The notes under the pieces were generated by a model that saw nothing but the letters and a program-made list of their open reading frames with translations, ran no database searches and was not told where the DNA came from. Source: a virus (lineage: Duplodnaviria; Heunggongvirae; Uroviricota; Caudoviricetes). From it: DNA of 64,000 bases. The position numbers and the translations under genes were made by a program. Where the stretch lies: IMG/VR virus record IMGVR_UViG_3300045988_158394. One strand, given 5' to 3'. Position 1 is the first letter of the stretch. Each line of letters starts with the position of its first letter. Of the stretch, positions 23,741 through 24,880 are shown one piece after another.

Positions 23741-23764
23741 CACAAAAAAGCCCCGTTCAGGGGC
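23741..23764 (-). terminator. Rho-independent terminator downstream of the GIY-YIG-like gene
   Basis: GCCCC-GTTCA-GGGGC hairpin followed by a T-run on the minus strand. Confidence 0.6.
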
Positions 23765-23771
23765 ATCAGTG

Positions 23772-24581
23772 TTATTTGCTAAGAGCAGCGAATAATCGTT
23801 CGAAATCGATAGTATCTATAGCACGCGTAAGCGCCGGAAGTTCAGCCTCAAAGTACCCGTGTCGATCGTAAAAGAAGGGACCGAAGAGCGAGGCATGTTG
23901 GATTCTACTTCGCCCCAGCCCGGACACACAGTTAAGCCCATTACCGGCTAAAAGGCTAAAAAACTTCTCTGGATTATCGTGGTAAAGCTGGGAATCAATG
24001 GTGGCGGTTAACTCTTCCATAGGGAAGCACACCCGCCCTGTATCCCAGGGATATTTAGTCCGAAGCATAAACATTGCTTTCAGCAATTCACATTGAGCGC
24101 GGATCGCGTCCGGTTCATAGCCAGATATGGAGACATAAGCCACGTCCCTCATTCCTGCGTCATCTTTGAAAGTCACGATAGAAGTAACATCCAGCTCTTT
24201 TTCGAAAGAGCAAGCAGCATCTACTGGACGCTGAAGTAAATCATTCGACTTAATGCGCTCGAGAATCCCTCCCCACATATCATTTAGATATTCGATATGA
24301 GCCAAAACCTTATCAAGACACTCTCGTGTAAACCATTCAGTATGCCCGCCACCGACGCTTTTCTCCCACGGCGCATTCCAGGGGAAAAAGGTTGCGTGTA
24401 AAGCCCGCTCAAGATTAACCATTGCCAAACGTGTACCACGATAGACCCGTGAAAGCGCAAAATCGGGACTCACTTGTAGCCCTTTAAACCGTGCCAATGG
24501 ACCACATGAAATGCCGATTTTAAAAGTATCTCCGTTCTCTGGCACCAGAACGTAGAGGTAGTGTTGTTTCTCTTCTTGCAT
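23772..24581 (-). CDS. GIY-YIG / T5orf172-like domain protein with unknown C-terminal domain
   Basis: 269 aa; N-terminal YLYVL...KIGIS...R...GHTEWF matches the GIY-YIG-like T5orf172 pattern; lies between the iteron array and the parA promoter. Confidence 0.55.
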   Translation of the reverse strand: MQEEKQHYLYVLVPENGDTFKIGISCGPLARFKGLQVSPDFALSRVYRGTRLAMVNLERALHATFFPWNAPWEKSVGGGHTEWFTRECLDKVLAHIEYLNDMWGGILERIKSNDLLQRPVDAACSFEKELDVTSIVTFKDDAGMRDVAYVSISGYEPDAIRAQCELLKAMFMLRTKYPWDTGRVCFPMEELTATIDSQLYHDNPEKFFSLLAGNGLNCVSGLGRSRIQHASLFGPFFYDRHGYFEAELPALTRAIDTIDFERLFAALSK

Positions 24582-24609
24582 ATCAATACCACTGCTTGAT
24601 GAGAACCGC

Positions 24610-24880
24610 GCAAATGTTGACTATGCGCGAAGGTTAATGTGAATAGTTGACTATGCGCGATGTGACTACAGTCAAAAGTTGACTGTAGTCGATTTAACTC
24701 CACCAAAGATCGACTATGTAAGATATTGTCGGGAGAAACGTTGACTATACGCGATGAAATGACCCTAAAAGCCATCTCAATAGCGACTTGCAGAATATTG
24801 ACGCCAGCAAAAATCCACCAGCGTCAACGAATGTCGCCTATAGTCAACTTCTCGCTATCGCATATAGTCAATATTATGGA
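24610..24880. repeat. Iteron array downstream of repA (incA-like copy-control locus)
   Basis: At least 8 copies of GTTGACTAT(G/A)CGCGA-like repeats in both orientations; track ORFs across this region are judged non-coding. Confidence 0.65.

Follow-up and report, generated by a model that had tools for sequence, protein, structure and literature searches.

A putative GIY-YIG-type nuclease gene at one end of the exchangeable replicon cassette of p0111-type P1-like phage-plasmids

The window analysed here, a stretch of 64,000 nucleotides from IMG/VR record IMGVR_UViG_3300045988_158394, belongs to a phage-plasmid that is P1-like and falls into the SJ46/RCS47/JL22 group. The 1,270-bp interval between parA and repA is 98.7-99.6% identical to that of phages of this group, and within it P1 is matched only over the first ~100 nt, which contain the par promoter. 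By coordinate, the minus strand carries gp23 (19457-21184), parB (21389-22390), parA (22407-23603), an open reading frame of 269 codons that we call ORF269 (23772-24581), and repA (24874-25758). ParA is 99.7% identical to P1 ParA and is encoded by the backbone, outside the exchangeable cassette described below. RepA is a Rep3-family initiator of the p0111 type, with 42.7% identity to P1 RepA. The par promoter/operator region (23604-23705, minus strand) is common to P1, and five tandem origin iterons with a 21-bp spacing (25835-25942) constitute the equivalent of incC.

Downstream of repA, an incA-like array (24612-24874) contains six to seven copies of the origin repeat, 15-19 bp long and with the core GTTGACTATNCGCGA, in two orientations (24612-30, 24642-60, 24674-92 and 24736-54 in one, 24834-50 and 24858-74 in the other). 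The layout of the array is identical in L003, L078 and L079, three further P1-like loci that carry a homologue of ORF269. The ATG of ORF269 lies 30 nt from the last iteron in the window, and the corresponding distance is 20-25 nt in the other three loci. An imperfect palindrome made of iteron half-sites, TTGACGC-N16-GCGTCAA (24798-24827), is located between the two orientation blocks of the array and could be an operator for RepA dimers; L003 retains its left half only. An iteron-like copy, TCGCTTATAGTCAACAT, with 88% identity to the reference iteron, was also noticed inside the repA coding sequence (25141-25157). It is kept in L003 (~7612-7630), whose RepA is 84% identical, and is a possible internal RepA-binding site, undescribed for the p0111 replicon.

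The start codon of ORF269 is an ATG, and upstream extension of the frame is impossible. Its G+C content (47.3%, versus 45.5% for repA and parA) is unremarkable. Eight nucleotides past its stop codon, a hairpin, GCCCCTGAACGGGGC, is followed by T6 at 23764-23750 of the minus strand. This intrinsic terminator (23742-23764) closes the repA-ORF269 unit upstream of Ppar, and an equivalent hairpin with a T-run is found downstream of the homologue in L079. A preliminary description of this DNA, made from the sequence alone, had reported a 269-aa gene with its own terminator at 23741-24620. Both the gene and the terminator are real, and the span covers ORF269 and its terminator and reaches the margin of the last iteron. 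The same description held that the gene can be read through from repA. According to the annotation of P1, the repA promoter should sit within the origin iterons, and from the end of repA to the start of ORF269 the sense strand has neither a terminator-like nor a promoter-like site. Read-through from repA, with a putative co-transcription of the two genes, is therefore plausible. The search for a dedicated promoter conserved across the four loci gave only one weak match, in L003 alone, and Shine-Dalgarno sequences are weak. No operator for the P1 C1 repressor is present within 23600-26100, the nearest being at 28288, and ORF269 shows no sign of direct immunity control.

The product of ORF269, annotated in RefSeq as a 'GIY-YIG nuclease family protein', has two domains. 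The N-terminal domain (aa 1 to ~108; 24258-24581, minus strand) matches the T5orf172 profile PF10544 with 26.9 bits, where the gathering cut-off is 20, over aa 8-85 and 86 of the 101 profile positions. Matches to phrog_681 and MUG113 back the T5orf172/GIY-YIG assignment, and the GIY-YIG alpha/beta fold was recovered for this domain, in agreement with the N-terminal module that had been proposed initially. The conserved residues are Y10, K21, G23, R31, E58, H62 and E82-W83-F84. G23, R31, E58 and E82-W83-F84 are invariant across 38 relatives, in which Y10, K21 and H62 are at least 90% conserved; Y10, R31, E82 and the K21-x-G23 motif are invariant or at least 90% conserved in alignments of both 13 and 38 sequences. 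By motif analogy, Y10 (the tyrosine of the first motif), R31 and E82 (the metal-binding glutamate) are putative catalytic-type residues. Their conservation argues for an active enzyme rather than for a domesticated binding protein. ORF269 is thus probably a DNA-cutting enzyme, with a nuclease activity that we infer from its sequence. GIY-YIG nucleases of the SLX1/UvrC type are only 11-17% identical to ORF269, and their partner domains and biology are unrelated.

The C-terminal domain (aa ~128-269; 23775-24200, minus strand) belongs to no sequence family. Pfam searches with the C-terminal domains of all four family members, at E values up to 10, returned nothing, including the Rep3 WH1 family PF01051, and a search of PDB sequences with the ORF269 domain gave no match; its initial description as uncharacterised thus holds. 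When the C-terminal ~150 residues were modelled alone, the prediction (pLDDT 77.6, pTM 0.76) displayed a winged-helix-like core of helix-strand-helix-helix-strand-strand with extra strands. With two methods, the best PDB matches of this model are winged-helix domains of replication initiators. The top Foldseek ranks (RctB, RepE54 and 6h24) are non-significant, with E values of 0.035-0.5 and TM scores of 0.33-0.42. The best structural matches are the WH1 domains of Rep3-family initiators (pPS10 RepA, 1hkq; F RepE, 2z9o; MSBI1.176, 6h24), with ~100 of ~125-130 residues aligned. The likeness of the predicted domain to an initiator WH1 is therefore treated here as a lead, not as an established relationship. 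Sequence homology with the adjacent RepA or with other RepA proteins was rejected (BLASTP E values of at least 3; 0.2% probability in hhalign comparison of profiles), and so was a common C-terminal domain in 52 distant relatives of the N-terminal domain (hhalign probability 0.1%). As far as the sequence comparisons go, the C-terminal domain appears specific to the P1-like clade. Between the window and the homologue P0004, the N-terminal domains are 62% and the C-terminal domains 32% identical. Across cassette types the values are 39% and 20%, the nuclease domain diverging about half as fast as the C-terminal domain across lineages.

Comparison with P1 by blastn revealed 99.2% identity for 19001-23705 and 96.8% for 25965-29000. 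Homology stops at 23705 and resumes at 25965, and the intervening segment is the sole non-homologous stretch of 19001-29000; within it, two short and weak matches to repA (~76% over 50-59 nt) were detected. The swapped segment (23706-25964) measures 2,259 bp in the window and 1,500 bp in P1, where it is the IncY cassette. It contains the origin iterons, repA, the downstream iterons, ORF269 and the terminator. The par promoter/operator region forms its left-hand recombination boundary, 66 bp past the ORF269 stop, and both this promoter and the DnaA-box/GATC half of oriR are common to the window and P1. The alignments thus indicate that ORF269 is one end of an exchangeable replicon-specificity cassette of the 'p0111' type, which replaces the IncY cassette of P1 as a unit. 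For JL22, 'repA' (p0111) and an unknown gene, gp57', have been reported in place of repA(IncY) (PMC9603915).

The IncY replicon of P1 has the same architecture, with five origin iterons, a Rep3-family repA and a downstream iteron array in two orientations, and it is likewise placed between the DnaA-box/GATC half of oriR and Ppar. It differs in the sequence of its iterons (TTGACTATACGCGA, versus the GATGTGTGCTGGAGGGA type in the window), in its RepA and in having a 212-bp non-coding spacer where ORF269 sits. The earlier statement that the incA iterons of P1 abut the par operon is roughly right: ~190 bp, with no gene, separate incA iteron 1 from the -35 of Ppar. The idea that ORF269 was inserted into this conserved junction is not sustained, since the gene is the end of a 2,259-bp cassette swapped as a unit, homologues with 27-44% identity occupy the same slot in three other P1-like elements, and a second backbone exchanges the cassette with the ORF included. 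In that second backbone, represented by L003 and L078, the flanks are 96-99% identical and the difference is confined to a ~2.2-kb segment, which ends at the first origin iteron on one side and 63-84 bp past the ORF stop on the other. The exchange is therefore seen in two independent backbones with equivalent boundaries, and each time the ORF is at the edge of the segment. With flanks 99% identical to those of the window, P1 does not carry the gene, and the presence/absence polymorphism involves the whole cassette. A remnant of the ORF in the 212-bp spacer of P1 was looked for by tblastn with the four family members, and E values up to 100 gave only noise; nor does the spacer have any informative feature that would point to a cleavage target. 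With no remnant there, insertion and deletion, that is gain and loss, are indistinguishable.

Some observations on the neighbouring partition genes can be added. The plasmid sequences L080 (CP057196.1, 1-5000) and L081 (NZ_MH781719.1, 1-5000), which represent another IncY class, have incA, then ~400 bp, and genes for a 401-aa ParA and a 321-aa ParB, with no gene between incA and ParA. The sizes of these par genes match those of L079, not those of P1, which implies that replicon and partition modules assort independently. Between the window (21389-23603) and the backbones of L003 and L078, ParA is 89% identical and ParB only 67-68% identical, a contrast consistent with a different partition specificity beside a conserved ATPase.

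Searches of 5.8 billion clustered proteins, together with an exhaustive HMMER search of 1.84 billion representatives, yielded three full-length relatives besides ORF269, namely P0004 (44% identity), P0010 (28%) and P0011 (29%). Each is encoded on a P1-like contig in the same slot, in the order repA, iterons, ORF, parA. The family, with its four divergent full-length members, is thus confined to one slot of P1-like elements, with the repA iterons on one side and parA on the other, where it accompanies three types of RepA (p0111-like, IncY-like and a third type). Pattern scans of genome contigs found one Escherichia locus, those of viral and metagenome contigs found essentially the p0111 allele only, and P0010 and P0011 were reached through the protein database, not through the contig scans. 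RepA is 84% identical between the window and L003 and 83% between L078 and P1, and that of L079 is 43-49% identical to all others. Since the RepA of L078 is so close to that of P1, an IncY-like cassette does carry the ORF. The ORF products are 44% identical between the window and L003, 41% between L078 and L079, and 27-29% in the other pairs. ParA is 99.7% identical not only between the window and P1 but also between L003 and L078, despite the different cassettes. The ORF type consequently follows RepA and the cassette, not the par backbone.

The ORF is present in essentially every p0111-type cassette. In PLSDB it was found in 401 plasmids, always with at least 90% identity, and RepA of the p0111 type (at least 80% identity) in 398, all other RepA matches being below 60%. 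Of 5,426 complete Escherichia coli genomes, 412 (~7.6%) carry the ORF, nearly always on a plasmid. P1 lacks it, it is not shared by all P1-like elements and it has no assigned function, which agrees with the preliminary description.

The other ~70 HMMER matches comprise the nuclease domain only (28-43% identity), and their C-terminal parts are unrelated to that of ORF269. Five of these relatives were inspected, and four are in a clear plasmid context near rep, par, mob or conjugation genes; the context of the fifth (P0082, in L083), beside an efflux-pump gene, is less clear. The nuclease-domain-only proteins of L082, L083, L085, L086/L087 and L088 are ~270-330 aa long, and the neighbouring genes include those for relaxase/TrbM, resolvase/PemK, KfrA/RPA-type Rep/ParA and Rep3/ParA/SopB. 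Judging from these sequences, T5orf172 nucleases encoded on plasmids may form a wider class in which the C-terminal domain varies. Several existing annotations are apparently wrong: RepA of P1 and RCS47 is called 'replication helicase' in RefSeq, the ORF269 region of phage phi456 (OR339795) is labelled 'terminase small subunit', and the gene call of P0004 has a 41-aa N-terminal extension that runs through the iterons.

Selection was examined with 59 loci in which all four genes align without gaps and with at least 95% identity to the window. The pN/pS ratio is 0.28 for the ORF, 0.020 for repA, 0.004 for parA and 0.028 for parB. The ratio of the ORF is 14 times that of repA and is similar in its two halves (0.26 and 0.28); no other gene of the rep-par block evolves nearly as fast. 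Premature stops occur in 8 of the 59 ungapped ORF alleles. At least five independent kinds of inactivating lesion were recognised among ~68 loci: stops at codon 112 (five loci, among them L025, a 97,897-bp contig), at codon 228 (two loci, among them L032, a 103,445-bp contig) and at codon 68, a frameshift and a truncation. Some 15% of the alleles are broken and some 85% intact. The archetype records pO111_3 (NC_013370.1) and SJ46 themselves appear to carry nonsense alleles, the former with the stop at codon 112 and the latter with that at codon 228; codon 112 lies precisely between the two domains, and two coding sequences are annotated there in RefSeq. P1 and two IncY classes replicate without the ORF. 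From these comparisons, the ORF is under some purifying selection and yet dispensable for maintenance, its dispensability following from repeated pseudogenisation and fast evolution.

The reading that we prefer, tentatively and at somewhat less than even odds, is that ORF269 is the site-specific endonuclease of an exchangeable cassette and that related elements compete by means of it, much as with a free-standing homing endonuclease gene (HEG) or with Odn, the 'origin-directed nuclease' of phage ICP1. That the gene might be a selfish nuclease was already suggested in the preliminary description, and it is plausible. An intact-looking nuclease head joined to a fast-diverging tail, the lack of a promoter, the weak ribosome-binding site, the position at the edge of the exchanged segment, the decay of alleles and the confinement to one locus all fit a HEG-like or Odn-like nuclease. 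The weak constraint and the decay are as expected in the life cycle of a HEG. The window and L003 have near-identical iterons and RepA proteins 84% identical, and still their ORF products are only 44% identical. The iterons or RepA of the own element are therefore unlikely to be the target, which argues against a housekeeping role in copy control. It has been reported that phage HEGs of the T5orf172 kind are located where tracts of exchanged DNA end (PMC10448857), and that the Odn protein of phage ICP1, a T5orf172 domain with an initiator-derived DNA-binding domain, cuts the iteron origin of its rival (PMC8263062).

On this preferred reading, ORF269 would have no promoter of its own and would be weakly transcribed, by read-through of the downstream iterons from the repA promoter, which RepA autoregulates, and its terminator would insulate the par operon. 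The winged-helix C-terminal domain would recognise a DNA site, or an initiator-DNA complex, in a rival P1-like element that has a different cassette or no nuclease gene; the target site would be absent from the own cassette. The N-terminal GIY-YIG domain would then cut at the recognised site. The cut rival would be lost, or else repaired by recombination within the conserved flanks, that is, the DnaA-box/GATC part of oriR on one side and Ppar/parA on the other. Such repair would copy the whole cassette, the nuclease included, into the rival backbone. Both the nature of the target and the spread of the cassette through breaks are inferred steps. A narrower proposal, to which we give about half the credence, is a 'replicon-drive' in which the WH1-like domain would read the iterons of the rival or dock on its iteron-bound RepA, and the cut would lead to loss of the rival or replacement of its incompatibility cassette by that of the nuclease.

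Among the closest known systems is Odn (Gp88) of ICP1, in which a T5orf172/GIY-YIG domain is joined to an initiator-type DNA-binding domain (Barth et al. 2021, PMC8263062); for ORF269, the second half of this combination is a weak fold-level lead. Odn works in a conflict that sets mobile elements against each other, and how much it matters depends on the type of replicon that the opponent has, as is proposed for ORF269. However, the DNA-binding part of Odn is found at the N terminus, is a member of the RepA_N family and shares 42% sequence identity with the RepA of the rival, whereas the domain of ORF269 is C-terminal, with no sequence similarity to RepA and a weak fold-level likeness to Rep3 WH1. 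Moreover, the gene for Odn is found in a lytic phage, at a distance from any origin, and the activity of Odn has been demonstrated, while ORF269 lies inside the replicon cassette of its own element and is known from sequence and models. Free-standing HEGs such as those of ICP1 also couple a nuclease to a separate specificity domain, adjoin essential genes and mark the boundary of an exchanged segment, and like ORF269 they have weak expression signals, fast evolution and degenerate alleles (PMC10448857). Among T5orf172 HEGs, 87% have zinc-finger CapR/DUF723/DUF4397 domains and a C-terminal nuclease, unlike ORF269, which also departs from HEGs in being near-constant within a cassette type and in belonging to a family limited to one locus and one group of elements. 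Two of these differences count against the preferred reading: the domain order of the published T5orf172 HEGs, an N-terminal zinc finger followed by the nuclease, is reversed in ORF269, which has no Cys motif, and the p0111-type gene is nearly always present (~400 plasmids with repA and the ORF), in contrast with the sporadic occurrence of classic free-standing HEGs. In addition, the covariation of ORF and RepA types could be explained by physical linkage alone. The Seg proteins of T4 and I-TevI are further comparators among free-standing GIY-YIG/T5orf172 HEGs.

A general nuclease of defence or counter-defence, degrading incoming phage or plasmid DNA or the nucleic acids of host defences with no link to the cassette, is in our view unlikely. 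T5orf172/GIY-YIG domains do occur in conflict systems, four of the five inspected distant relatives are on plasmids near rep, par or mob genes, the ORF evolves fast, and defence systems are known to be carried by P1-like elements (bioRxiv 10.1101/2025.09.12.675607). Against this, PADLOC-DB 2.0 returned no family at E values up to 1, nor did NCBIfam, so the accessory (anti-)defence role raised in the preliminary description fares less well than the selfish one. The ORF is a single gene with no partner or sensor, it lies inside the replicon cassette with no promoter of its own, and ~15% of its alleles are broken. Cargo hotspots are occupied by varied genes, but in this slot one and the same family is found every time. 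Somewhat less probable still is an accessory factor in replication or copy control, whose WH1-like domain would bind the cognate iterons or form heterodimers with RepA while the nuclease would nick or process DNA at the downstream iterons, perhaps to set free handcuffed plasmid pairs or to resolve intermediates. Its attraction lies in the position directly after the iteron array, with the ATG 20-30 nt off the last iteron in all four loci, in the probable co-transcription with repA, in the resemblance of the C-terminal domain to initiator WH1, which mediates dimerisation of Rep, and in the covariation of ORF and RepA types. Replication of P1 and two IncY classes without the ORF, the nonsense alleles that appear in established plasmids such as pO111_3 and SJ46, and the 14-fold excess of pN/pS over that of repA are all contrary to it. 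So is the 32% identity of the C-terminal domains between cassettes that have near-identical iterons and RepA proteins 84% identical.

The lesions raise the question of whether the ORF is a decaying passenger, the functionless remnant of an old nuclease that hitch-hikes through tight linkage. Such a remnant would display what is seen here, namely inactivating lesions of five or more independent kinds in ~68 loci, premature stops in 8 of 59 ungapped alleles, weak Shine-Dalgarno sequences and the lack of a promoter. However, a pN/pS of 0.28 is still well below 1, the frame and the putative catalytic residues are kept across four lineages at 27-44% identity, and ~85% of the alleles are intact in a gene carried by 412 of 5,426 complete E. 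coli genomes; we consider this explanation to be as improbable as the copy-control one. Finally, the protein could be a nuclease domesticated as a DNA-binding regulator, like CapR of PLE, which would repress par, repA or genes of a rival and would not cut. Regulators derived from T5orf172 HEGs provide a precedent and the C-terminal domain is predicted to be winged-helix-like, but the putative catalytic Y10, R31 and E82 are invariant or nearly so, and domestication of the CapR type keeps a zinc-finger DNA-binding domain that is absent from ORF269. We regard it as the least credible of the explanations considered.

The RefSeq annotation of ORF269 and its co-replacement with repA (PMC9603915) are already known, and no published function for it was found. 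The literature searched contains no mention of its fixed membership of the cassette across three replicon specificities, the IncY-like one included, of identical exchange boundaries in two backbones, of a C-terminal domain that is specific to the clade and may have an initiator-WH1 fold, or of the selection pattern of the ORF. In P1-like phage-plasmids, which often carry ESBL, mcr and toxin genes, two replicon types, IncY and p0111, occur on near-identical backbones. A nuclease fixed in the cassette, at a recombination boundary and with a possibly initiator-like recognition domain, offers a concrete mechanism that could cover both cassette replacement and exclusion between co-infecting relatives. 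If ORF269 proves inactive, it would still be a useful marker of cassette ancestry. Should the preferred reading be true, the concepts of Odn and of HEG islands would extend from lytic vibriophages to enterobacterial plasmids, and T5orf172 nucleases would gain a new C-terminal specificity domain. The replicon-drive form, if true, would amount to a gene drive that acts on the determinants of plasmid replication and incompatibility, and would explain the IncY/p0111 split of P1-like phage-plasmids on near-identical backbones.
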